From a phage: a DNA stretch of 64,000 bases. Each line of letters opens with the position of its first letter. Position 1 is the stretch's first letter. Below, one piece after another: positions 2,664 through 30,644 of this stretch. The stretch is taken from sequence record PZ452583.1; one strand, written 5' to 3'. The notes beneath the pieces are model-generated. The model saw nothing but the letters and a program-made list of their open reading frames with translations, was not told where the DNA came from and ran no database searches. A program made the translations under genes and the position numbers.

Positions 2664-2998
2664 TTCATAATCACCAAATAAGCAGATTTAGCAGTTTCAA
2701 CACGATAAATTTCGTGACGAAGTTTAGTTATACTTTTAATAACAGAACTAATTATATTCTGCCCATCTTTAAAGCGGTTTTTCTTATCAATAAAAATTGC
2801 GCCAACCATCTTTTTGTGAAGCTCAACTGGATACTTCGTCACAATAATAGCATCATATACGGAAGGATGAATACTATTCACCAGAGTGTCATTCATTAAA
2901 GTTATTCTAATGAACTGAGCTGTTTCAGAGTCAAGCGCTCTATGATCGCCAGTATCATTTTCAAGACAATTATCAATTATATCAGTTAAATTCATCAT
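2660..2998 (-). CDS. Hypothetical protein (cd.x)
   Basis: ORF track 112 aa; stop overlaps cd start (ATGA). Confidence 0.6.
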   Translation of the reverse strand: MMNLTDIIDNCLENDTGDHRALDSETAQFIRITLMNDTLVNSIHPSVYDAIIVTKYPVELHKKMVGAIFIDKKNRFKDGQNIISSVIKSITKLRHEIYRVETAKSAYLVIMK

Positions 2999-3234
2999 AG
3001 TACGCCATACACCCTTTGTGCTTCAACTAATCCATCAAAATCCAATTTGAGATGTGTTATTTGATCACCATCACCTGGATTCACAATTACTAATACTGAA
3101 CGAGGAGTTTCGGTAATAACACGAACTGATGTTTCAGGAAATCGTTCAGAAACCTTATTTACCAATTCCTGTGCAAATAGCTTAACTTTTTCTTGGAATT
3201 CTTTAACAGTAATCGGTTTTTCACTTAGCAGCAT
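2995..3234 (-). CDS. Hypothetical protein (cd.x)
   Basis: ORF track 79 aa; early promoter immediately upstream. Confidence 0.6.
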   Translation of the reverse strand: MLLSEKPITVKEFQEKVKLFAQELVNKVSERFPETSVRVITETPRSVLVIVNPGDGDQITHLKLDFDGLVEAQRVYGVL

Positions 3235-3263
3235 TTTGTTTTCCTCATTTGTTTGGTAGAGCT

Positions 3264-3293
3264 ATAATATCACAACTCTACCATAAAGTAAAC
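3264..3293 (-). promoter_or_regulatory. T4-type early promoter (GTTTAC -35, 18-nt spacer, TATTAT -10)
   Basis: Minus-strand read GTTTAC...TATTAT with A/T-rich upstream; upstream of ORF 2995..3234. Confidence 0.6.
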
Positions 3294-3295
3294 TA

Positions 3296-3571
3296 TTAAA
3301 TTGCTTTGAATTCTGCTGTCTGCGATTCAAAACGAATATCGCCTTTGATAACTAGCTCAGCATCAAGACCGAATACAACAATGATATGCGCGGAACCTGG
3401 ATACAACGTAATTGCAATAGAATCCACCTGGTCTGGAAGCAAAGTGTTCAATACATGAGTCACTTGAGCATGGATTCGAAGCTCGGCTGCGTTATCAAGC
3501 TTTTCAAACATGTTATTAGCGATAATTTGGCTAAACACTACTTCTACGATTTTAGAGTAAGTCGGAAACAT
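3296..3571 (-). CDS. Hypothetical protein (cd.x); start corrected to SD-preceded ATG
   Basis: Track ORF 3296..3601; internal ATG at 3571 has GAGGTAAAT SD and overlaps upstream stop. Confidence 0.55.
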   Translation of the reverse strand: MFPTYSKIVEVVFSQIIANNMFEKLDNAAELRIHAQVTHVLNTLLPDQVDSIAITLYPGSAHIIVVFGLDAELVIKGDIRFESQTAEFKAI

Positions 3572-3573
3572 AT

Positions 3574-3774
3574 TTACCTCACATAATTTTCTTCGAGCCA
3601 ATCAATAACATCCAAAGCGTTATCAAAAGTTGAACCATCTACTTTGTCTTCTGTTTCATAATCAAGAACATCTAAACCTACTCTTCCATTAACAATAGGC
3701 CATAAACAAAACAGGTATTTCTTTTCTTTTTCAATTTTATCACAAAGACGATAAATCTTTTCTAGATTATTCAT
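3574..3774 (-). CDS. Hypothetical protein (cd.x)
   Basis: ORF track 66 aa. Confidence 0.5.
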   Translation of the reverse strand: MNNLEKIYRLCDKIEKEKKYLFCLWPIVNGRVGLDVLDYETEDKVDGSTFDNALDVIDWLEENYVR

Positions 3775-3963
3775 AAGTTTTCCACGGTAAAGGCAGTTTA
3801 GTTTTCTTTACTGTTAGTTCAACATCGGGATTCTTTTCTCTTAATTTAAGACATTCCTCCCAAGCTCTGATTTCACTAGTGAAAACACAAAATTGACCAT
3901 TACTAGTACCAACTAAACCGCTATTTACAATAACAATAGCCCAAGTTTCATGATGCAAAGCCA

Positions 3964-3964
<1 letters not shown>
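3767..3964 (-). CDS. Hypothetical protein (cd.x)
   Basis: ORF track 65 aa. Confidence 0.5.
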
Positions 3965-5167
<1,203 letters not shown>

Positions 5168-6541: not shown

Positions 6542-6569
6542 AAAGTCCTCATGTTATGTTAGTAAGACT

Positions 6570-6599
6570 ACTATAACACAACACGAGGGACTTGTAAAC
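6570..6599 (-). promoter_or_regulatory. T4-type early promoter (GTTTAC / TATAGT)
   Basis: GTTTAC, 18-nt spacer, TATAGT on minus strand upstream of alc. Confidence 0.6.
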
Positions 6600-19332: not shown

Positions 19333-19340
19333 TATAAATA
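19333..19340 (+). promoter_or_regulatory. T4-type late promoter TATAAATA for gene 34
   Basis: Exact TATAAATA ~35 nt upstream of gene 34 ATG. Confidence 0.7.
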
Positions 19341-19374: not shown

Positions 19375-22300
19375 ATGGCCGAGATTAAAAGAAAGTTCAG
19401 AGCAGAAGATGGTCTGGACGCAGGTGGTGATAAAATAATCAACGTAGCTTTAGCTGATCGTACCGTAGGAACTGACGGTGTTAACGTTGATTACTTAATT
19501 CAAGAAAACACAGTTCAACAATATGATCCAACTCGTGGATATTTAAAAGATTTTGTAATCATTTATGATAACCGCTTTTGGGCTGCTATAAATGATATTC
19601 CAAAACCAGCAGGAGCTTTTAATAGCGGACGCTGGAGAGCATTACGTACAGATGCTAACTGGATTACGGTTTCATCTGGTTCATATCAATTAAAATCTGG
19701 TGAAGCAATTTCGGTTAACACTGCAGCTGGAAATGACATTACGTTTACTTTACCGTCTTCTCCAATTGATGGTGATACTATCATTCTCCAAGATATTGGA
19801 GGAAAACCTGGAGTTAACCAAGTTTTAATTGTAGCTCCAGTGCAAAGTATTGTAAACTTTAGAGGTGAACAGGTACGTTCAGTACTAATGACTCATCCAA
19901 AGTCACAGCTAGTTTTAATTTTTAGTAATCGTCTGTGGCAAATGTATGTTGCTGATTATAGTAGAGAAGCTGTAATTGTAACACCAGCGAATACTTATCA
20001 AGCGCAATCAAATGATTTTATCGTACGTAGATTTACTTCTGCTGCACCAATTAATGTTAAACTTCCAAGATTTGCTAATCATGGCGATATTATTAATTTC
20101 GTTGATTTAGATAAACTGAATCCACTTTATCATACAATTGTTACTACATACGATGAAACGACTTCAGTACAAGAAGTTGGAACTCATTCCATTGAAGGCC
20201 GTACATCAATTGACGGTTTCTTGATGTTTGATGATAATGAGAAATTGTGGAGATTGTTTGACGGGGATAGTAAAGCGCGTTTACGCATTATAACGACTAA
20301 TTCTAATATTCGTCCAAACGAAGAAGTTATGGTATTTGGTGCGAATAACGGAACAACCCAAACAATTGAGCTTCAGCTTCCAACTAATATTTCTGTTGGT
20401 GATACTGTTAAAATTTCCATGAATTACATGAGAAAAGGACAAACAGTTAAAATCAAAGCTGCCGGTGAAGATAAAATTGCTTCTTCAGTTCAATTACTGC
20501 AATTCCCAAAACGCTCAGAATATCCGCCTGAAGCTGAATGGGTTACAGTCCAAGAATTAGTTTTTAACGGTGAAACTAATTATGTTCCAGTTTTACAACT
20601 TGCTTATATTGAAGATTCTGATGGAAAATATTGGGTTGTACAGCAAAACGTTCCAACTGTCGAAAGAGTAGATTCTTTAAATGATTCTACTAGAGCAAGA
20701 TTAGGCGTAATTGCTTTAGCTACACAAGCTCAAGCTAACGTCGATTTAGAAAATTCTCCACAAAAAGAATTAGCAATTACTCCAGAAACATTAGCTAACC
20801 GTACTGCTACTGAAACTCGTAGAGGTATTGCAAGAATAGCAACTACTGCTCAAGTGAATCAGAACACCACATTCTCTTTTGCTGATGATATTATCATCAC
20901 TCCTAAAAAGCTGAATGAAAGAACTGCTACAGAAACTCGCAGAGGTGTTGCAGAAATTGCTACTCAGCAAGAAACAAACGCAGGAACAGATGATACAACC
21001 ATCATTACTCCTAAAAAGCTTCAAGCTCGTCAAGGTTCTGAATCATTATCTGGTATTGTAACTTTTGTATCTACTGCAGGTGCTACTCCAGCTTCTAGCC
21101 GTGAATTAAATGGTACGAATGTTTATAATAAAAACACTAATAATTTAGTTGTTTCGCCAAAAGCTTTGGATCAGTATAAAGCTACTCCAACACAGCAAGG
21201 TGCAGTAATTTTAGCAGTTGAAAGTGAAGTAATTGCTGGTCAAAGTCAAGAAGGATGGGCAAATGCTGTTGTAACGCCAGAAACGTTACATAAAAAGACA
21301 TCAACTGATGCAAGAATTGGTTTAATTGAAATTGCTACGCAAAGTGAAGTTAATACAGGAACTGATTATACTCGTGCAGTCACTCCTAAAACTTTAAATG
21401 ACCGTAGAGCAACTGAAAGTTTAAGTGGTATAGCTGAAATTGCTACACAAGTTGAATTCGACGCAGGCGTCGACGATACTCGTATCTCTACACCATTAAA
21501 AATTAAAACCAGATTTAATAGTACTGATCGTACTTCTGTTGTTGCTCTATCTGGATTAGTTGAATCAGGAACTCTCTGGGACCATTATACCCTTAATATT
21601 CTTGAAGCAAATGAGACGCAACGTGGTACACTTCGTGTAGCTACACAAGTTGAAGCTGCTGCAGGAACATTAGATAATGTTTTAATAACTCCTAAAAAGC
21701 TTTTAGGTACTAAATCTACCGAATCGCAAGAAGGTGTTATTAAAGTTGCAACTCAGTCTGAAACTGTGACTGGAACGTCAGCGAACACTGCTGTATCTCC
21801 AAAAAATTTAAAATGGATTGTGCAGAGTGAACCTACTTGGGCAGCTACTACTGCAATAAGAGGTTTTGTTAAAACTTCATCTGGTTCAATTACATTCGTT
21901 GGTAATGATACAGTCGGTTCTACCCAAGATTTAGAACTGTATGAGAAAAATAGCTATGCGGTATCACCATATGAATTAAACCGTGTATTAGCAAATTATT
22001 TGCCATTAAAAGCAAAAGCTGCTGATACAAATTTATTGGATGGTCTAGATTCATCTCAGTTCATTCGTAGGGATATCGCACAGACGGTTAATGGTTCACT
22101 AACCTTAACCCAACAAACGAATCTGAGTGCCCCTCTTGTATCATCTAGTACTGCTACGTTTGGTGGATCAGTTTCGGCAAATAGTACATTAACTATTTCT
22201 AATACTGGAACGGCAACTCGTCTGATTTTTGAGAAAGGACCTCAAACTGGAACTAACCCAGCACAGACGATGACTATCAGAGTTTGGGGAAATCAGTTTG

Positions 22301-23244
22301 GTGGCGGATCAGATACAACGCGTTCTACTGTATTTGAAGTTGGTGATGAAACATCTAATCACTTTTATTCTCAACGTAATAAAGATGGGAATATAACGTT
22401 TAGCATTAATGGTACTGTGATGCCAATAAATGTTAACGCTTCAGGCACGTTAAATGCGAATGGCGTTGCAACATTCGGTCGTTCAGTTACAGCCAACGGT
22501 GAATTCATTAGCAAGTCTGCAAATGCTTTCAGAGCAATTAGTGGTGATTACGGATTCTTTATTCGCAATGATGCTGCTAATACCTATTTTATGCTCACTG
22601 CATCCGGTGATCAGACTGGCGGATTTAATGGATTACGTCCTTTGTCTATTAATAATGCATCTGGCCAAGTAACGATTGGTGAAAGCTTAATCATTGCCAA
22701 AGGTGCTACTATAAATTCTGGTGGTTTAACTGTTAACTCGAGAATTCGTTCTCAAGGTACTAAAACATCTGACTTATATACCCGTGCGCCAACATCTGAT
22801 ACTGTAGGATTCTGGTCAATTGATATTAACGATTCAGCCACTTATAACCAGTTCCCGGGTTATTTTAAAATGGTTGAAAAAACTAATGAAGTGACTGGAC
22901 TTCCGTACTTAGAACGTGGCGAAGAAGTTAAATCTCCTGGTACACTGACACAGTTTGGTAACACACTTGATTCGCTTTACCAAGATTGGATTACTTATCC
23001 AACGACACCAGAAGCGCGTACCACTCGCTGGACACGTACATGGCAGAAAACCAAAAACTCTTGGTCAAGTTTTGTTCAGGTATTTGACGGAGGTAACCCT
23101 CCTCAACCATCTGATATCGGTGCTTTACCATCTGATAATGCTACAATGGGGAATCTTACTATTCGTGATTTCTTACGAATTGGTAATGTTCGCATTATTC
23201 CTGACCCAGTGAATAAAACTGTTAAATTTGAATGGGTTGAATAA
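19375..23244 (+). CDS. 34: gp34 long tail fibre proximal subunit
   Basis: 1289 aa, equals T4 gp34; internal repeated motifs; SD GGAG. Confidence 0.95.
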   Translation: MAEIKRKFRAEDGLDAGGDKIINVALADRTVGTDGVNVDYLIQENTVQQYDPTRGYLKDFVIIYDNRFWAAINDIPKPAGAFNSGRWRALRTDANWITVSSGSYQLKSGEAISVNTAAGNDITFTLPSSPIDGDTIILQDIGGKPGVNQVLIVAPVQSIVNFRGEQVRSVLMTHPKSQLVLIFSNRLWQMYVADYSREAVIVTPANTYQAQSNDFIVRRFTSAAPINVKLPRFANHGDIINFVDLDKLNPLYHTIVTTYDETTSVQEVGTHSIEGRTSIDGFLMFDDNEKLWRLFDGDSKARLRIITTNSNIRPNEEVMVFGANNGTTQTIELQLPTNISVGDTVKISMNYMRKGQTVKIKAAGEDKIASSVQLLQFPKRSEYPPEAEWVTVQELVFNGETNYVPVLQLAYIEDSDGKYWVVQQNVPTVERVDSLNDSTRARLGVIALATQAQANVDLENSPQKELAITPETLANRTATETRRGIARIATTAQVNQNTTFSFADDIIITPKKLNERTATETRRGVAEIATQQETNAGTDDTTIITPKKLQARQGSESLSGIVTFVSTAGATPASSRELNGTNVYNKNTNNLVVSPKALDQYKATPTQQGAVILAVESEVIAGQSQEGWANAVVTPETLHKKTSTDARIGLIEIATQSEVNTGTDYTRAVTPKTLNDRRATESLSGIAEIATQVEFDAGVDDTRISTPLKIKTRFNSTDRTSVVALSGLVESGTLWDHYTLNILEANETQRGTLRVATQVEAAAGTLDNVLITPKKLLGTKSTESQEGVIKVATQSETVTGTSANTAVSPKNLKWIVQSEPTWAATTAIRGFVKTSSGSITFVGNDTVGSTQDLELYEKNSYAVSPYELNRVLANYLPLKAKAADTNLLDGLDSSQFIRRDIAQTVNGSLTLTQQTNLSAPLVSSSTATFGGSVSANSTLTISNTGTATRLIFEKGPQTGTNPAQTMTIRVWGNQFGGGSDTTRSTVFEVGDETSNHFYSQRNKDGNITFSINGTVMPINVNASGTLNANGVATFGRSVTANGEFISKSANAFRAISGDYGFFIRNDAANTYFMLTASGDQTGGFNGLRPLSINNASGQVTIGESLIIAKGATINSGGLTVNSRIRSQGTKTSDLYTRAPTSDTVGFWSIDINDSATYNQFPGYFKMVEKTNEVTGLPYLERGEEVKSPGTLTQFGNTLDSLYQDWITYPTTPEARTTRWTRTWQKTKNSWSSFVQVFDGGNPPQPSDIGALPSDNATMGNLTIRDFLRIGNVRIIPDPVNKTVKFEWVE
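20776..21780 (+). repeat. 34: Internal protein-level repeats within gene 34
   Basis: Recurring motif ITPKKL-x-R/T-ATE-TR/S-RG/G-IAEIATQ-x-E-x-NAGTDDT at least five times in translation. Confidence 0.7.
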
Positions 23245-23252
23245 GAGGTATT

Positions 23253-24368
23253 ATGGAAAAATTTATGGCAGAGTTTGGACAAGGATATGTCCAAACGCCA
23301 TTTTTATCGGAAAGCAATTCAGTAAGATATAAAATAAGCATAGCGGGTTCTTGCCCGCTTTCTACAGCAGGACCATACGTTAAATTTCAGGATAATCCTG
23401 TAGGAAGTCAAACATTTAGCGCAGGCCTTCATTTAAGAGTTTTTGACCCTTCCACCGGAGCGTTAGTTGATAGTAAATCATATGCTTTTTCGACTTCAAA
23501 TGATACTACATCAGCTGCTTTTGCTAGCTTCATGAATTCTTTGACAAATAACAGAATTGTTGCTATATTAACTAACGGAAAGGTTAATTTTCCTCCTGAA
23601 GTAGTATCTTGGTTAAGAACAGCAGGAACGTCTGCTTTTCCATCTGACTCTGTATTGTCAAGATTCGACGTATCATATGCTGCTTTTTATACTTCTTCTA
23701 AAAGAGCTATTGCATTAGAGCATGTTAAACTGAGTAATAGAAAAAGCACAGATGATTATCAAACTATTTTAGATGTTGTATTTGACAGTTTAGAAGACGT
23801 CGGAGCTACCGGGTTTCCAAGAAGAACGTATGAAAGCGTTGAGCAATTTATGTCAGCGGTTGGTGGAACTAATAACGAAATTGCAAGATTACCAACTTCA
23901 GCTGCTATAAGTAAACTCTCTGATTATAATTTAATTCCTGGTGACGTTCTTTATCTTAAAGCCCAGTTATATGCCGATGCTGATTTACTTGCGCTTGGAA
24001 CTACAAATATATCTATCCGTTTTTATAATGCATCTAATGGATATATTTCCTCGACACAAGCTGAGTTTACTGGACAGGCTGGGTCTTGGGAATTAAAGGA
24101 AGACTATGTAGTTGTTCCAGAAAATGCAGTTGGATTTACGATATATGCACAGAGAACTGCTCAAGCGGGACAAGGCGGTATGCGAAATTTAAGCTTTTCT
24201 GAAGTATCAAGAAATGGCGGCATTTCAAAACCTGCTGAATTTGGCGTCAATGGTATTCGTGTTAATTATATCTGTGAATCTGCTTCACCTCCGGATATAA
24301 TGGTACTTCCTACGCAAGCATCGTCTAAAACTGGTAAAGTGTTTGGGCAAGAATTTAGAGAAGTATAA
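23253..24368 (+). CDS. 35: gp35 tail fibre hinge protein
   Basis: 371 aa; position after 34. Confidence 0.9.
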   Translation: MEKFMAEFGQGYVQTPFLSESNSVRYKISIAGSCPLSTAGPYVKFQDNPVGSQTFSAGLHLRVFDPSTGALVDSKSYAFSTSNDTTSAAFASFMNSLTNNRIVAILTNGKVNFPPEVVSWLRTAGTSAFPSDSVLSRFDVSYAAFYTSSKRAIALEHVKLSNRKSTDDYQTILDVVFDSLEDVGATGFPRRTYESVEQFMSAVGGTNNEIARLPTSAAISKLSDYNLIPGDVLYLKAQLYADADLLALGTTNISIRFYNASNGYISSTQAEFTGQAGSWELKEDYVVVPENAVGFTIYAQRTAQAGQGGMRNLSFSEVSRNGGISKPAEFGVNGIRVNYICESASPPDIMVLPTQASSKTGKVFGQEFREV

Positions 24369-24373
24369 ATTGA

Positions 24374-24400
24374 GGGAGCCTTCGGGTTCCCTTTTTCTTT
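24374..24400 (+). terminator. Rho-independent terminator after gene 35
   Basis: GGGAGCC-UUCG-GGUUCCC hairpin followed by T-run. Confidence 0.65.
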
Positions 24401-24407
24401 ATAAATA
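24400..24407 (+). promoter_or_regulatory. T4-type late promoter TATAAATA for gene 36
   Basis: Exact TATAAATA ~25 nt upstream of gene 36 ATG. Confidence 0.7.
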
Positions 24408-24430
24408 CTATTAAAATAAAGGGGCATACA

Positions 24431-25096
24431 ATGGCTGATTTAAAAGTAGGTTCAACAACCGGAGGCTCTGTCATTTGGCATCAAGGAAATTTTCCATTGA
24501 ATCCAGCCGGTGACGATGTACTCTATAAATCATTTAAAATATATTCAGAATATAATAAACCACAGGCAGCTGATAACGATTTCGTTTCTAAAGCTAATGG
24601 TGGTACTTATGCATCAAAGGTAACATTTAACGGCGGCGTCCAAGTCCCGTATGCTGTAAACAACACAAACCCATGCGGTATTTATCCAGGTAACGGTGAT
24701 AATGCTACTTTTGCTGTAGCAAATATTGATATTGTTTCGTGGAATGGTATTGGTTTTAAATCATCGCAAGGTTCAGCAGCCCGAACTGTTGTAATTAATG
24801 CACGTAATGGTGATATTAATACAAAAGGTGTTGTGTCTGCGGCAGGTCAAGTAAGAAGTGATGCAGCTGCTCCTATAGCAGCGAATGACCTTACTAGAAA
24901 GGACTATGTTGATGGAGCAATAAATACTGTTACAGCAAATGCGAACTCTAGAGTGTTGCGTTCTGGCGACACTATGATAGGTAATTTAACCGCGCCAAAC
25001 TTTTTCTCACAGAATCCTGCGTCTCAACCTTCACATGTTCCACGATTTGACCAAATCGTAATTAAGGATTCTGTTCAAGATTTCGGCTATTATTAA
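24431..25096 (+). CDS. 36: gp36 long tail fibre distal connector
   Basis: 221 aa, equals T4 gp36. Confidence 0.9.
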   Translation: MADLKVGSTTGGSVIWHQGNFPLNPAGDDVLYKSFKIYSEYNKPQAADNDFVSKANGGTYASKVTFNGGVQVPYAVNNTNPCGIYPGNGDNATFAVANIDIVSWNGIGFKSSQGSAARTVVINARNGDINTKGVVSAAGQVRSDAAAPIAANDLTRKDYVDGAINTVTANANSRVLRSGDTMIGNLTAPNFFSQNPASQPSHVPRFDQIVIKDSVQDFGYY

Positions 25097-25104
25097 GAGG
25101 ACTT

Positions 25105-28100
25105 ATGGCTACTTTAAAACAAATACAATTTAAAAGAAGCAAAACTGCAGGTCAACGTCCTGCTGCTTCAGTATTAGCCGAAGGTGAATTGGCTATAAAC
25201 TTAAAAGACCGTACTCTTTTTACTAAAGATGACTCGGGAAATATTATTGATTTAAGCATTACCGCTGGCGGTAATATTAGTGGAAATATCACTCAAACTG
25301 GCGATTATACACAGACTGGAAAATTTAATTTAATTGGTCCGCAAATTGTAGCAAGCGGTGGATATATTGAGTTTAATTATCGTACTACTGGAAGTGGGGC
25401 TTGGTCCGGTCAACACACTGCAAAAGCTCCAATTTTTGTAGATTTAAGCTCAGCTACTTCCACATCTGAATATAATCCTATAATTAAACAGCGCTTTAAA
25501 GATGGAACTTTTTCATTAGGTACTTTAGTTTCTGAAGGTTCGTTGAAGATTCATTATATTGATGAAACTGGTCAATCTAAATATTGGACATTTGCGCGCT
25601 CAGGTAATTTTCAAGTTGATTCTGGTAATTTATTAGTATCTGGTGGGTATTTAGTCGCTCAGAGTAATATTGAAACAAGAACAGGTTCTTTGATTGGTCC
25701 ATCTGTTGTAACTAAAAATATTTCATTTGATACGAAAGCGTTTGGACAATACGATTCGCAGTCATTAGTTCAATATGTTTATCCTGGAACTGGTGAAACA
25801 AACGGAATTAATTACCTTCGTAAATTCCGTGCAAAATCTGGTGGTACGATTTATCATGAATTAGCTTCTGCACAAACCGGAAAAAGTGATGAACTGTCTT
25901 GGTGGACCGGTAATACAGCCGTTAATAAACAAATGGGCCTTCGCAATGATGGGTCTTTAGTGTTGCGACGCTCACTCGCAATTGGTACAATTACAACAGA
26001 TGAAAACATTAATAATTACGGCTCCACTGGAGCAATGGGTGAATGCTATATAGTCATTGGAGATGCCGCAACTGGTGTATCATATAAAAGATCTGGTGTA
26101 TATGATTTAGTTGCTAATGGTCTTTCTATCGCGTCTATTACTCCTGACAGTTTCCGTAGTACTCGTAAAGCATTATTTGGACGTTCAGAAGACCAAGGCG
26201 GAACATGGAATATGCCTGGAACGAACGCTGCGCTTTTATCAGTTCAAACACAAGCTGATGGAAACTCTGCCGGTGATGGTCAAACCCACATTGGATATAA
26301 TTCTGGCGGTAAAATGAATCATTATTTTCGTGGTACTGGTCAGATGAATATCAATACCCAACAAGGTATGGAAATTAATCCAGGACTGTTGAAACTAACA
26401 ACCGGTACAAACAATGTAATGTTCTATGCTGATGGCGGTATTACATCTGTTAAGCAGCTTTCAATTTATAACGGCGTATATTTAGCAGCCAATAATTCTA
26501 CTGCTGGGCTAACATTCGCTCCAACTACTACAATTGATGGTACTAAGCAAATTTTGTGGGAAGGTGGTAAGCGTGCTGGTCAGAATAAAAGCTATGTAAC
26601 TGTTAAAGCGTGGGGTAATTCATTTAACGCATCTGGCGATCGTAATCGTGAAACAGTTTTTGAAGTAGCTGACGGACAAGGTTATTATTTTTATTCCCAA
26701 CGCGTAGCCCCAAGCGGCTCAGAAACTACTGGTCCTGTTGTAACCCAGTTTGCTGGAGCTGTTAATGCTAGAGGAAGTATTATTACTGACGGAAGTTTTA
26801 AAGTTAATGGATTAAGCACTTTAGTCGGTAATGTTACCATGTCTAATGGTTTGTTTGTCCAAGGTGGTTCTTCTATTACTGGACAAGTTAAAATCGGCGG
26901 AACTGCAGATGCATTAAGAATTTGGAATGCTGAATACGGGGCTATTTTCCGTCGTTCTGAAGATAAGCTTTATATTATTCCAACTCCGCAGAATGCTGGT
27001 GAATCAGGTGGTATTTCTAATTTACGTCCGTTCTATATTACATTAAGTACTGGTAAAGTTTCCATGGTTCATGATGTAGATATCGGCGGCGGTAGATTTA
27101 AAGTAGAAGTGGCTGGAACTACGGCTGGTCAACGTATTATAGTTAATGCAGCGAGCGATGCTATTAGAATAAATGCTCCAACACAAGAGTCTTCTAACTT
27201 CATTCAAGGACGTAAGGCTGATGTGAATAAATGGTATTTGGGTATTGGCGATGGCGGCAACGTCGTTCGTATGCACAGCTACACATATTCACATGGTATT
27301 GCATTAAATTCTGATTCTGTCGATATTACTAAGCCTCTTAAAGTCGGAAACGCCCAACTAGGAACTGACGGTAATATTACCAATGGTTCAGGAAACTTTG
27401 CCAACTTAAATACCACGTTAAATCGTAAAGTTAATTCTGGATTTATTACTTATGGAGCAACCTCTGGATGGTATAAGTTTGCAACAGTAACAATGCCACA
27501 ATCCACTTCGACAGTCTTCTTTAAAATAGTTGGAGGTTCTGGATTTAATAGCGGATTATTCACACAATGTAATATTGCTGAAATTGTTTTACGTACTAGT
27601 AATGAAAGACCTGCTGACTTAAATGCTGCATTATACACAAGAACAATTGGAGCTGCATTTAAAGATATTGCAGTTAATAACGTCTCTGGAGATACATATG
27701 ACATTTATGTTTCTGCTGGAACATATTGTAATCAATTAGCTTGTGAGTGGTCATGTACCGAAAATGCTACTGTTAGTGTTATTGGTATTAACTCATCTAC
27801 ACAATCACCTGTAGATGCTCTTCCAGATACAGCAGTTAACGGTCAAGTTGCTAATGTTCTTAATAACTTAGTTGATCGCGGTAAAGTTAAGCGTTATGAA
27901 GCCGATTCTGAAATAGCTATTAATAACCAAACCGGTATTCGTATCAGAAGCAACAGCGATAAAACTGGTTCTGTTGCTACAATGCTACGAAATGATGGCG
28001 GTAGTTTTTATATTCTGTTTACAGATAAAAATGCCACCGATGGCGCAGCAACTGTTAATGGTGATTGGAATAGTAAACGTCCTTTCGCAATTAACTTAAC

Positions 28101-28866
28101 AACCGGCGAAGTGATGATGAATAACGGCATAGCTGTTCGCAGCGCTGCTTTATTCTATAATAGCATAAACGTCAAAGATAATGGTTCTATTAACTTTGAT
28201 AAATCAGGCGCTAACCCGAGAAATATGAGAATATTTCATGCTGGCGATGCTTCTCGCGGTAACCGTATTGAAATTGCCGATGAAACTAACTATATTGCTT
28301 ACTTTGAAAAAACACCAGGTGGAGCTAATCGCTTTGTAGTAAATAATGCTACTGTAGCTGGTGTTAATCAAATGAATTCATTTGGTATTAACATCAATAA
28401 CGCACTTGGTGGAAATAGTATAGCGTTTGGCGATAATGACACTGGTATTAAGCAAAATGGCGATGGATTATTAGACATATATGCGAATGGTGTACAGACT
28501 TTCCGTTTCCAAAACGGTGATTTGTACTCATACAAAAATATAAATGCTCCAAACGTTTATATTCGTTCTGATATTCGTTTAAAATCTAACTTCAAACCTA
28601 TCGAAAATGCACTTGATAAAGTTGAAAAACTTAACGGTGTCATTTACGATAAAGCTGAATATATCGGTGGAGAGGCAATTGAAACTGAAGCGGGTATTGT
28701 GGCTCAAACGTTACAAGACGTTTTACCAGAAGCTGTCCGTGAAACAGAAGACAGTAAGGGTAATAAAATACTCACTGTTTCTTCTCAAGCCCAGATTGCT
28801 CTTCTGGTTGAAGCTGTGAAAACACTTTCTGCTCGTGTAAAAGAACTTGAATCTAAACTTATGTAA
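25105..28866 (+). CDS. 37: gp37 long tail fibre distal subunit with C-terminal autochaperone-like domain
   Basis: 1253 aa; position after 36; C-terminus SDIRLKSNFKPIENALDKVEKLNGVIYD... resembles intramolecular chaperone domains. Confidence 0.9.
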   Translation: MATLKQIQFKRSKTAGQRPAASVLAEGELAINLKDRTLFTKDDSGNIIDLSITAGGNISGNITQTGDYTQTGKFNLIGPQIVASGGYIEFNYRTTGSGAWSGQHTAKAPIFVDLSSATSTSEYNPIIKQRFKDGTFSLGTLVSEGSLKIHYIDETGQSKYWTFARSGNFQVDSGNLLVSGGYLVAQSNIETRTGSLIGPSVVTKNISFDTKAFGQYDSQSLVQYVYPGTGETNGINYLRKFRAKSGGTIYHELASAQTGKSDELSWWTGNTAVNKQMGLRNDGSLVLRRSLAIGTITTDENINNYGSTGAMGECYIVIGDAATGVSYKRSGVYDLVANGLSIASITPDSFRSTRKALFGRSEDQGGTWNMPGTNAALLSVQTQADGNSAGDGQTHIGYNSGGKMNHYFRGTGQMNINTQQGMEINPGLLKLTTGTNNVMFYADGGITSVKQLSIYNGVYLAANNSTAGLTFAPTTTIDGTKQILWEGGKRAGQNKSYVTVKAWGNSFNASGDRNRETVFEVADGQGYYFYSQRVAPSGSETTGPVVTQFAGAVNARGSIITDGSFKVNGLSTLVGNVTMSNGLFVQGGSSITGQVKIGGTADALRIWNAEYGAIFRRSEDKLYIIPTPQNAGESGGISNLRPFYITLSTGKVSMVHDVDIGGGRFKVEVAGTTAGQRIIVNAASDAIRINAPTQESSNFIQGRKADVNKWYLGIGDGGNVVRMHSYTYSHGIALNSDSVDITKPLKVGNAQLGTDGNITNGSGNFANLNTTLNRKVNSGFITYGATSGWYKFATVTMPQSTSTVFFKIVGGSGFNSGLFTQCNIAEIVLRTSNERPADLNAALYTRTIGAAFKDIAVNNVSGDTYDIYVSAGTYCNQLACEWSCTENATVSVIGINSSTQSPVDALPDTAVNGQVANVLNNLVDRGKVKRYEADSEIAINNQTGIRIRSNSDKTGSVATMLRNDGGSFYILFTDKNATDGAATVNGDWNSKRPFAINLTTGEVMMNNGIAVRSAALFYNSINVKDNGSINFDKSGANPRNMRIFHAGDASRGNRIEIADETNYIAYFEKTPGGANRFVVNNATVAGVNQMNSFGININNALGGNSIAFGDNDTGIKQNGDGLLDIYANGVQTFRFQNGDLYSYKNINAPNVYIRSDIRLKSNFKPIENALDKVEKLNGVIYDKAEYIGGEAIETEAGIVAQTLQDVLPEAVRETEDSKGNKILTVSSQAQIALLVEAVKTLSARVKELESKLM

Positions 28867-28867
28867 A

Positions 28868-28885
28868 AGAGGGCTTCGGCCCTCT
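28868..28885 (+). promoter_or_regulatory. Stem-loop AGAGGGC-UUCG-GCCCUCU between genes 37 and 38
   Basis: Perfect 7-bp stem with UUCG loop; no clean U-run, so may be a stabiliser or attenuator. Confidence 0.5.
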
Positions 28886-28896
28886 AAGGATTTTTA

Positions 28897-29682
28897 ATGG
28901 CAATTGTAGGTGTTCCTGGCTGGATTGGTGAATCTGCCGTGAATGAAACTGGACAACGCTGGATGGATGCTGCAATGAAAGCAGTTCGCGTTTCAGTTCC
29001 TGGCTGGATGAGCTCAATGGCTGGACAATCTAAAGAAGTATATTACAGCATTGGTGCTAGCAATTCTTATAATAAAGACACGTTAATAAACTGGATAAAA
29101 GCCCAAGGAAGCACTCCTGTTGTTATTACTATTACAGGAAATATTGTTTCTCAATCTACTGGTGTTCCATGCTTAGATTTTCCTAGCTCATTAACTAATG
29201 CATACGTGACACTTAATATCAATTCAGGCGTGCATGTTTGGGGCCGTGGCGGGAATGGCGGAAATAACTCTGCCGGTGGAGCAGGAGGAACTGCAATAAA
29301 TAATGGAATTGGAACTAGATTGCGTATTAATAACAATGGTGTTATCGCAGGAGGCGGTGGCGGAGGCGGTGGCGGATACTACTCTCCTTTTTCACAAATG
29401 AAATTGACTTTTGGCGGAGGAGGCGGTCGTCCATTTGGTGCTGCTGGCGGGTCTGCTAATATGGAACAAGGAGCTACTGCTGGTACTATTTCTGCACCTG
29501 GTAAAGGGTCTGTCAATGGTATCTATAATGGCGGGAATGGTGGTGATGCCGGAGCTGCAGGAGGTAAATGTAATATTCGTGGTCAAGGATCAGAATATAA
29601 CGGTGGTGCTGCGGGTAAAGCTGTTACTGGTAATGCTCCAACTTGGACTAAAGTTGGCACAATATATGGTTCAAGAGTATAA
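28897..29682 (+). CDS. 38: gp38 receptor-recognising adhesin (T2/K3/Ox2 type)
   Basis: 261 aa; four glycine-rich motifs separated by variable segments; position after 37. Confidence 0.88.
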   Translation: MAIVGVPGWIGESAVNETGQRWMDAAMKAVRVSVPGWMSSMAGQSKEVYYSIGASNSYNKDTLINWIKAQGSTPVVITITGNIVSQSTGVPCLDFPSSLTNAYVTLNINSGVHVWGRGGNGGNNSAGGAGGTAINNGIGTRLRINNNGVIAGGGGGGGGGYYSPFSQMKLTFGGGGGRPFGAAGGSANMEQGATAGTISAPGKGSVNGIYNGGNGGDAGAAGGKCNIRGQGSEYNGGAAGKAVTGNAPTWTKVGTIYGSRV

Positions 29683-29714
29683 TTTTTGAATAAATATCCT
29701 TAAAAGGAGGGTCT

Positions 29715-30371
29715 ATGGCAGCACCTAGAATATCATTTTCGCCCTCTGATATTCTATTTGGTGTTCTAGATCGCTTGTTCAAAGATAACGCTACCGGGAA
29801 AGTTCTTGCTTCCCGGGTAGCTGTCGTAATTCTTTTATTTATGATGGCGATTGTTTGGTATAGGGGAGATAGTTTCTTTGAGTACTATAAGCAATCAAAG
29901 TATGAAACATACAGTGAAATTATTGAAAAGGAAAGAAATGCACGCTTTGAATCTGTCGCCCTGGAACAACTCCAGATAGTTCATATATCATCTGAGGCAG
30001 ACTTTAGTGCGGTGTATTCTTTCCGCCCTAAAAACTTAAACTATTTTGTTGATATTATAGCATATGAAGGGAAATTACCTTCAACAATAAGTGAAAAATC
30101 ACTTGGAGGATATCCTGTTGATAAAACTATGGATGAATATGCGGTTCATTTAAATGGACGTCATTATTATTCCGATTCAAAATTTGCTTTTTTACCAACT
30201 AAAAAGCCTACTCCCGAAATAAACTACATGTACAGTTGTCCATATTTTAATTTGGATAATATCTATGCTGGAACGATAACCATGTACTGGTATAGAAATG
30301 ATCATATAAGTAATGACCGCCTTGAATCAATATGTGCTCAGGCGGCCAGAATATTAGGAAGGGCTAAATAA
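29715..30371 (+). CDS. t: Holin t
   Basis: 218 aa, equals T4 holin; N-terminal TM; strong SD AAGGAGGG. Confidence 0.93.
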   Translation: MAAPRISFSPSDILFGVLDRLFKDNATGKVLASRVAVVILLFMMAIVWYRGDSFFEYYKQSKYETYSEIIEKERNARFESVALEQLQIVHISSEADFSAVYSFRPKNLNYFVDIIAYEGKLPSTISEKSLGGYPVDKTMDEYAVHLNGRHYYSDSKFAFLPTKKPTPEINYMYSCPYFNLDNIYAGTITMYWYRNDHISNDRLESICAQAARILGRAK

Positions 30372-30644
30372 TTATTTGTTCGTATACATCTCTAGATATC
30401 GATATACACCCTCAAAACCCTCGTTGAATTCGTCGATGAGGGTTTTCTTATCTTCTTGAGTTAATTCAGAAACAATTTTACGGAATGAATTCTGATTTAA
30501 TTTTCTACCTTCATGCGTTACTCCAATCTCATTCAGAAATGCAATAAAATTAGCACGATTCTCAACAATATCTTCTCTGGAAAATTTAATCAAAATAGAC
30601 GCAACAGTAATAATTTCACGAACTGTATCAATGTTTTTATTCAT
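30372..30644 (-). CDS. asiA: AsiA anti-sigma70 factor
   Basis: 90 aa; MNKNIDTVREIITVASILIKFSREDIVENRANF... matches T4 AsiA. Confidence 0.95.
   Translation of the reverse strand: MNKNIDTVREIITVASILIKFSREDIVENRANFIAFLNEIGVTHEGRKLNQNSFRKIVSELTQEDKKTLIDEFNEGFEGVYRYLEMYTNK

Follow-up and report, generated by a model that had tools for sequence, protein, structure and literature searches.

A T2-type long tail fibre tip with a predicted self-cleaving gp37 chaperone and a gp38 adhesin of predicted Tsx specificity

A distal tail fibre module of the T2/K3/T6 type

The window, a stretch of 64,000 nucleotides of phage DNA (sequence record PZ452583.1), carries between positions 25105 and 29682 what is very probably the distal receptor-recognition part of a T2/K3/T6-type long tail fibre from a Tequatrovirus (T-even phage), operating in five steps. 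In this model, which no evidence contradicts, g36, g37 and g38 would be expressed late, and three gp37 chains would fold into the distal half-fibre, with a 99-residue S74 chaperone driving their trimerisation. After folding, Ser1155 and Lys1160 would cut the Arg1154-Ser1155 bond and release the chaperone; virion gp37 would therefore comprise about 1154 residues and end in ...NVYIR. The freshly exposed trimeric gp37 tip would then bind one gp38 monomer via W9, W22 and W37 of the gp38 N-terminal domain. Finally, the C-terminal polyglycine-II sandwich of gp38, built from glycine-rich motifs, would present hypervariable loops to a host outer-membrane protein, the predicted target being the nucleoside channel Tsx. 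Homologues provide the basis for Tsx binding, for cleavage and for the 3:1 stoichiometry. Direct observations were the open reading frames, the family memberships, the conservation of the dyad, the modelled fold of the chaperone and the identity to characterised phages.

The module is thus an ordinary T2-type tail fibre tip, and this reading belongs to the textbook knowledge on such phages. The literature already covers T2 gp37 processing (1986), the function of gp38 as an adhesin, the gp38 structure and the receptor code of gp38, and more than 20 sequenced phages carry near-identical genes. What becomes possible is a precise annotation: gp37 with a self-cleaving S74 chaperone (predicted cut R1154/S1155) and gp38 as an adhesin with predicted Tsx specificity. 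The latter predicts resistance through loss of tsx, which is useful for choosing cocktail phages.

gp37 and its C-terminal chaperone

The gene g37 spans exactly 25105-28866 (+) and encodes 1253 aa, the length given in the initial annotation, whose figure of 1026 aa for T4 gp37 holds as well. Such a length is unremarkable among T2-type phages (T6 994, K3 1243, FriedrichMiescher 1260, PaulHMueller 1302 and T2 1341 aa). The protein is covered over its full length by phrog_1699 (1020 bits); Pfam delimits a Gp34_trimer-like region at aa 508-645 and a gp37_trimer region at aa 686-759, and aa 467-699 match solved T4 gp34 structures. The part predicted to be retained in the virion, aa 1-1154 (25105..28566, +), would form the trimeric distal half-fibre shaft with the C-terminus ...NAPNVYIR.

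It is followed by the C-terminal intramolecular chaperone (Peptidase_S74), aa 1155-1253 plus stop codon (28567..28866, +). Here SDIRLKSNFKPIENALDKVEKLNGVIYD begins at aa 1155, corresponding to nt 28567, and 99 residues remain. A chaperone-like C-terminus of roughly 100 residues from this nucleotide onward had been proposed from the letters of the DNA, and profile match, conserved S/D/K residues, predicted fold and identity to T2 all agree with that proposal. Peptidase_S74 (PF13884) matches aa 1155-1212 of 1253 with E = 3.5e-15 and 56.5 bits against a cutoff of 22, and gp37 of T2 and T6 gives the same match; neither this profile match nor that of gp38 to the GP38 family is due to chance. The S-D-x-x-x-K motif is present as S1155-D-I-R-L-K1160, with the serine first in the domain and the lysine five residues on. 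S74 homologues down to 33% identity keep S1155, D1156 and K1160 without or almost without exception; in an 18-sequence alignment reaching down to 38% identity the lysine is invariant, while serine and aspartate are at least 90% conserved. Ser1155 and Lys1160 are consequently predicted to be the catalytic dyad.

Structure prediction, which had been suggested for this region, led to the same domain. An AlphaFold model of aa 1140-1253 (pLDDT 83.3, pTM 0.70) contains a long terminal helix (model residues 88-113), and the best ten PDB matches found by Foldseek are all intramolecular-chaperone domains (7dc3, 3gw6, 3gud), with E = 1.9e-6 and a TM of 0.71 for 7dc3. A single-sequence run on aa 1090-1253 reached a pLDDT of 52, too low to be informative.

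Concerning release of the chaperone, PMC3157838 reports, with reference to Drexler et al. 1986, that gp37 of T2 and T6 undergoes cleavage before gp38 caps it, and the S16 chaperone cleaves itself at DLNVS/SDRRIKK, which exposes the gp38 docking surface (PMC7917993). The S16 site aligns to NVYIR/SDIRLKS of the window gp37, and the motif aligns likewise to S16 SDRRIK and MyRF (A)DLRAK. Over its last 99 aa, the window gp37 does not differ from T2 and K3 gp37 at any position. Since the C-terminus equals that of T2, and since processing is published for T2 and S16, autoproteolytic release appears likely, with a predicted cut at NVYIR/SDIRLK between R1154 and S1155.

gp38 as a T2-type adhesin

The gene g38 (28897-29682, +; 261 aa) starts 30 nt past the stop codon of the S74-bearing g37. 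Its product matches GP38 (PF05268; 243.2 bits, E = 3.6e-72), Gp38_N (PF21721; 64.8 bits, E = 7.2e-18) and phrog_2056 (E = 2.6e-105). Furthermore, aa 8-259 match the S16 gp38 crystal structure 6F45_D (E = 2.4e-49), and 9V85 is matched as well (E = 1e-33). Similarity of this gp38 to T4 gp38 was looked for and none was detectable. On these sequence grounds the earlier assignment of gp38 as a T2-type adhesin, and not as a T4-type chaperone, is well supported.

Domain names were taken from the alignment to 6F45_D. The N-terminal attachment domain (Gp38_N; aa 1-42; 28897..29022, +) contains W9, W22 and W37, which are invariant in the alignment of T2, T6 and BASEL phages and aligned with tryptophans of S16 gp38. 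A role for the attachment-domain tryptophans is described (PMC6851490), and gp38 is known to sit at the fibre tip in virions of T2 and S16 (PMC3157838, PMC6851490). By analogy, the three tryptophans would plug into the cleaved gp37 tip. The linker and the start of the central beta-helix follow at aa 43-115 (29023..29241, +), a region that is T2/K3-like in the alignment and just 36% identical to T6.

The remaining part, aa 116-261 plus stop codon (29242..29682, +), is the specificity domain, a predicted Tsx-binding polyglycine-II sandwich. Glycine makes up 23% of gp38, and the domain includes a five-glycine run at aa 173-177 and a run of nine at aa 152-160 (nt 29350-29376). The initial annotation had recorded the nine-glycine run correctly, but had counted four glycine-rich motifs. 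With boundaries set from the alignment with T2, T6 and BASEL phages, there are five (about aa 116-131, 151-160, 173-181, 212-223 and 236-245), separated by four hypervariable segments (about aa 132-150, 161-172, 182-211 and 224-235), following the scheme defined by Trojet et al. 2011 (PMC3157838); for the S16 crystal structure ten polyglycine-II helices were counted (PMC6851490). Conservation across the alignment amounts to 67-100% in the motifs, against identities as low as 0-25% in hypervariable segments 2-4. Published gene swaps and point mutants (PMC3157838 among the sources) establish that these segments determine the receptor, which supports the role suggested earlier for the variable parts.

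Tsx as the predicted receptor

The comparison of the variable segments with adhesins of known receptor, as recommended beforehand, revealed identity with Tsx-dependent phages. In total, 260 of the 261 gp38 residues are shared with FriedrichMiescher/Bas39, JK38 and JLBYU22. All 146 positions of aa 116-261 agree with these phages; the sole difference is K28 (R28 in the relatives), which lies in the attachment domain. The receptor is Tsx for Bas39 (BASEL supplementary table) and Tsx/Kdo for JK38 (RB-TnSeq). With a specificity domain that does not differ from that of these Tsx-dependent phages, the window gp38 is predicted to use Tsx as its receptor. In hypervariable segments 2-4 the identity is 77-83% with the classical Tsx phage T6, versus 25-59% with the OmpA phage PaulHMueller and 0-25% with T2. 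One substitution in a hypervariable loop can switch the receptor (Q206L, from OmpF to OmpW), thus near-identity elsewhere would be insufficient on its own; the loops of the window gp38, however, are identical to those of Bas39 and JK38.

The gp37 of the window differs by 2-9% from gp37 of Tsx phages. One might speculate that the gp37 shaft with a JK36-like patch, together with K28 of gp38, alters the fit between fibre and adhesin or adds a second receptor contact. We regard this as very improbable; if true, host range would not be predictable from gp38 identity alone.

Alternative interpretations

Identical gp38 proteins are labelled 'distal long tail fiber assembly catalyst' or 'tail assembly protein' in some database records. 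Taken at face value, such labels would make gp38 nothing but an assembly chaperone as in T4, leaving receptor recognition to the gp37 tip itself. However, the labels are a carry-over from T4 annotation. The adhesin family match described above, the undetectable similarity to T4 gp38 and the match to the S16 adhesin structure, in which gp38 caps gp37, all speak against a pure chaperone. In addition, swapping gp38 changes receptor specificity in close relatives according to the literature, and the window gp37 ends in an S74 domain without a T4-type Collar and needle tip. Such a chaperone role is therefore extremely unlikely. The S74-like domain could in turn be a degenerate remnant that stays uncleaved in the mature fibre. 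Yet its catalytic serine and lysine are intact, its sequence equals the T2 C-terminus that is known to be processed, and in S16 removal of the chaperone is needed for gp38 docking (PMC7917993), which leaves retention with only a slim chance.

Granting a T2-type adhesin that is docked onto a processed gp37, its receptor might still be another protein, e.g., OmpA, OmpF, FadL or OmpC. OmpA-type and Tsx-type gp38 are closely related, and a small number of exchanges may suffice to turn one into the other (PMC12032242); the gp38 of PaulHMueller, an OmpA phage, shows 87% overall identity. Nevertheless, two phages with experimentally established Tsx dependence have exactly this specificity domain, the OmpA and FadL/OmpF examples differ strongly in the hypervariable segments, and the only exchange, K28R, sits in the attachment domain. 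Hence we consider a receptor other than Tsx unlikely, albeit less so than the two readings discussed above.

Comparison with known phages and structures

The g37-g38 gene order is shared with JLBYU22 (OK272484), FriedrichMiescher/Bas39 (MZ501066) and Shigella phage JK38 (MK962755), and the whole 4578 bp of the module are 95-97% identical to these three at the DNA level. For gp37 the identity amounts to 98.1% with the Escherichia phage JLBYU22 and 91.3% with Bas39, which has 7 extra residues near aa 676; in the JK38 record an exact 730-bp tandem duplication splits g37. A 200-bp patch of g37 (26231-26430) is just about 80% identical to JLBYU22, Bas39 and JK38, but 97.7% identical to JK36.

T2 (AP018813) shares the tip: the last 165 aa of gp37 are 93% and the gp38 attachment domain 95% identical. 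In contrast, the middle region of the 1341-aa T2 gp37 is only about 50% identical, and the hypervariable segments of T2 gp38 are unrelated; the receptor of T2 is FadL, not Tsx. K3 (X04747) has an identical 99-aa chaperone. The gp38 of T6 (MH550421) is the classical Tsx adhesin. Its glycine-rich motifs 2 and 3 equal those of the window gp38, but its N-terminal half reaches just 47% identity; in T6 gp37 (994 aa) the tip is different and the chaperone just 41% identical. The window thus pairs a fibre tip and attachment domain of the T2/K3 type with a specificity domain resembling that of T6, as many database phages already do.

The gp37-gp38 complex of Salmonella phage S16 (PDB 6F45) aligns with gp38 over its full length, with tryptophans and polyglycine runs conserved, and its gp37 construct aligns with aa 1097-1251, including the SDxRxK cleavage motif. 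The S16 chaperone comprises 113 aa compared to 99 aa here, and the hypervariable loops of gp38 from S16 and PP01 (PDB 9V85) differ from those of the window; PP01 gp38 binds OmpC (PMC12892980), while the receptor-binding site of S16 gp38 was described as not yet known (PMC6851490). More distantly, K1F endosialidase (3GW6), the GA-1 appendage (3GUD) and the MyRF ICA domain (7DC3) share the Pfam family, the Ser/Lys motif at the domain start and the predicted fold. The passenger upstream of S74 differs, being a T-even fibre shaft in the window and an endosialidase or transcription factor in the 3GW6 and 7DC3 systems. Unlike in these three systems, cleavage of the window gp37 would additionally create a docking site for a separate adhesin. 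T4 gp37 carries Collar and Phage_fiber domains without S74, while the window gp37 carries S74 without Collar. A T4-type distal fibre (gp37 with Collar/needle tip and without S74, 183-aa gp38) was rejected, given that S74 is present and gp38 is unrelated to T4 gp38.

Neighbouring elements

The genes follow the order g34-g35-g36-g37-g38-t, with matching Pfam and PHROG families. The 221-aa product of g36 (24431..25096, +; Phage_T4_gp36, E = 1.8e-43; phrog_1425) is the long tail fibre's distal hinge connector, which links gp35 to the N-terminus of gp37. An exact match to the T4-type late promoter consensus, TATAAATA, lies 24 nt upstream of g36 (24400..24407, +), and a second one at 19333, upstream of g34. 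Based on what is known from T4, the former likely marks the start of a late g36-g37-g38(-t) transcript.

Between g37 and g38, a terminator-like scan detected the GC-rich hairpin AGAGGGC-TTCG-GCCCTCT with a UUCG loop (28868..28885, +; -13.4 kcal/mol, z = -2.1), downstream of which AAGGA, the g38 ribosome-binding site, and a T-run are found. The hairpin is identical in T2, K3, JK38, JLBYU22 and FriedrichMiescher and is labelled a potential terminator in the K3 record. At this position T6 carries another hairpin-forming sequence, GGGGC-TTT-GCCCC.

Organization of the tail-fibre cluster

The initial annotation of the g37-g38 module holds and its reading is supported. As such the module is established knowledge, its genes being near-copies of database entries; the present check contributes the precise position predicted for gp37 cleavage, a corrected count of the gp38 motifs and a named receptor. 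The module belongs to a T-even cluster of long-tail-fibre genes, which is complete, lies on the + strand and is made up of g34 (19375-23244, 1289 aa), g35 (23253-24368, 371 aa), g36 (24431-25096, 221 aa), g37 (25105-28866, 1253 aa) and g38 (28897-29682, 261 aa), with the holin gene t (29715-30371, +) downstream. The coordinates of the initial annotation were exact, as was the length of 1026 aa that it gave for T4 gp37. Among T2-type gp37 proteins, 1253 aa is an ordinary size (T6 994, K3 1243, JLBYU22 1253, FriedrichMiescher 1260, PaulHMueller 1302 and T2 1341 aa). Short ORFs of 61-92 aa inside g37 and g38, located either on the minus strand or in another reading frame, were without support and were rejected.

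The window originates from a Tequatrovirus. Escherichia phage JLBYU22 (OK272484) matches the 4578-bp module over its full length with 97.0% identity, while JK38 (MK962755), QOTSP, A2, teqhal and FriedrichMiescher (Bas39, MZ501066) reach 94-96%. The upstream 24 kb are colinear with Shigella phage Sf22 at 96.6% identity. A deletion of ~9 kb relative to Sf22 was considered and ruled out by local BLAST, which found the window colinear with Sf22; the apparent span of 32.7 kb was an artefact caused by the inclusion of a 54-bp repeat match. This 54-bp stretch (6546-6599) is 98% identical to Sf22 intergenic sequence adjoining an alt-like gene (201-254 of the Sf22 sequence L008), which is ~9 kb from where colinearity would place it, and resembles a short dispersed repeat.

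The C-terminal chaperone of gp37

The initial annotation had likened the last ~100 residues of gp37, from nt 28567 onward, to intramolecular chaperone domains, and both the domain search and the predicted fold bear this out. The motif SDIRLKSNFKPIENALDKVEKLNGVIYD begins at residue 1155 (nt 28567), from where 99 residues follow, and aa 1155-1212 are matched by the Pfam family Peptidase_S74 ('chaperone of endosialidase'; 56.5 bits, cutoff 22, E = 3.5e-15). T2 and T6 gp37 give the same match, whereas T4 gp37 lacks it and has a Collar domain instead. A Ser/Lys dyad is the defining feature of the Peptidase_S74 family. In alignments of S74 homologues, obtained by a database search with aa 1100-1253 that recovered S74-domain proteins down to 33% identity, Lys1160 is invariant, and conservation is at least 90% for Ser1155 and Asp1156. 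The predicted dyad is Ser1155/Lys1160.

Structure prediction, which had been proposed as a check, gave a consistent result. A single-sequence AlphaFold run on aa 1090-1253 was discarded as useless (pLDDT 52), and a usable model required an alignment of 18 sequences (aa 1140-1253, pLDDT 83.3, pTM 0.70). All of its best 10 Foldseek matches in the PDB are intramolecular-chaperone domains; the MyRF ICA domain 7dc3 matches with E = 1.9e-6 and a TM of 0.71, and the chaperones of K1F endosialidase (3gw6) and GA-1 (3gud) are likewise among the matches. When the PDB was searched by sequence alone, the chaperone region recovered S16 gp37 and MyRF, while the endosialidase and GA-1 chaperones were absent and appeared in the fold search only.

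According to Trojet et al. (PMC3157838, citing Drexler et al. 1986), gp37 of T2 and T6 is cleaved before gp38 caps it. In S16 the cleavage site is DLNVS/SDRRIKK (slash, point of cleavage), and removal of the chaperone uncovers the gp38 docking surface (PMC7917993). Because this motif aligns with NVYIR/SDIRLKS of the gp37 studied here, and because T2 and K3 gp37 have exactly the same 99 C-terminal residues (100% identity), we predict that the chain is cut after R1154 and before S1155 (between nt 28566 and 28567), which would leave a mature protein of 1154 residues.

Mosaic structure of g37

Known segments in mosaic arrangement make up g37. A patch of 200 bp (26231-26430, ~aa 376-442) shares 78-82% identity with the three closest phages, which elsewhere here reach 95-100%, while Shigella phage JK36 matches the patch with 97.7%. 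The pattern suggests that a small part of the fibre shaft is a mosaic patch that arose by recombination. Residues 482-726 resemble gp34 aa 949-1163 (27% identity), and solved structures of T4 gp34 in the PDB match aa 467-699.

The stretch directly before the chaperone (28402-28554, aa 1100-1150, from ALGGNSIAFGDNDTGIKQNGDGLLDIYANG to FRFQNG) shows 54-76% identity to proteins of other origin in the two examples checked: an E. coli prophage 'phage tail protein' without S74 domain (P0013, 76%) and a Salmonella tail fibre protein with S74 domain (P0005, 54%). Many further partial matches of this kind were returned by the search with aa 1100-1253, which suggests that fibre-tip modules are exchanged between T-even and temperate phages. 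The JK38 record contains an exact tandem duplication with 730-nt spacing inside g37 (2953-3982 of the locus sequence L002). It causes a frameshift that splits g37 into two annotated CDS and is absent from the window; it is either real or an assembly artefact.

gp38 as a probable tip adhesin

With 23% glycine, a nine-glycine run at aa 152-160 (nt 29350-29376) and a five-glycine run at aa 173-177, gp38 is matched by Pfam GP38 (243 bits, E = 3.6e-72) and Gp38_N (E = 7.2e-18), and by the PHROGs entry 'tail fiber protein; host specificity' (E = 2.6e-105). The S16 gp38 crystal structure (6F45_D) aligns to aa 8-259 (E = 2.4e-49), and the PP01 gp38 receptor-binding domain (9V85) aligns as well. A role as a T4-like chaperone was rejected, as gp38 is without similarity to the T4 chaperone of that name. 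Three tryptophans of S16 gp38 insert into the gp37 tip (PMC6851490); their counterparts here are W9, W22 and W37, which are invariant in the alignment.

An alignment with T2, T6 and BASEL phages divides the C-terminal domain into five conserved glycine-rich motifs (~aa 116-131, 151-160, 173-181, 212-223 and 236-245) and four hypervariable segments, following the definition of Trojet et al. (PMC3157838). The initial annotation had the nine-glycine run right, while its count of four motifs was slightly low, since five are found by this definition. In the S16 structure, the same region forms ten polyglycine-II helices (PMC6851490).

Predicted receptor

At least 99% identity to this gp38 is found in 21 phage records. 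The proteins of FriedrichMiescher, JK38 and JLBYU22 differ solely at residue 28 (K here, R there), within the attachment domain, and residues 116-261 are identical (146/146). T6 is the classical Tsx phage, and its hypervariable segments 2-4 share 77-83% identity with those of the window, compared with 0-25% for T2 and 25-59% for the OmpA phage PaulHMueller. Tsx is the primary receptor of FriedrichMiescher (BASEL supplementary table), and RB-TnSeq gave Tsx/Kdo for JK38 (bioRxiv 10.64898/2026.04.02.716166). Given this identity to Tsx phages and the T6-like hypervariable segments, the comparison with adhesins of known receptor that had been suggested earlier points to Tsx, which we predict to be the receptor of gp38. 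The N-terminal half of gp38 is T2/K3-like (76-95%) and shares just 47% identity with T6. This fits the T2/K3-type gp37 tip, in line with the lock-and-key pairing of both parts described by Trojet et al. (PMC3157838).

Putative promoters and RNA elements

The late-promoter consensus TATAAATA is located upstream of g34 (19333) and g36 (24400), and no such site was found directly before g38. GC-rich hairpins with UUCG tetraloops directly follow g35 (24372-24393) and g37 (28868-28885), the latter immediately 5' of the ribosome-binding site of g38. T2, K3 and the closest relatives share this second hairpin without change, and at the same position T6 carries another sequence able to form a hairpin. 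The K3 database record from the 1980s annotates the equivalent hairpin as a potential terminator; it may terminate transcription, stabilise the RNA or control translation. Within 24000-30600, counts of sigma-70-like promoters and terminator-like elements were not clearly above shuffled expectation, and conservation was limited to the two UUCG hairpins. Rfam gave no match and ARAGORN no tRNA in the window. As judged by consensus match only, a near-consensus sigma-70-type promoter (TTGGCA-18-TATAAT, 11/12) at 29654-29695 overlaps the end of g38, and 3' of it AATAAATA, with one mismatch to the late-promoter consensus, lies ~20 nt upstream of t.
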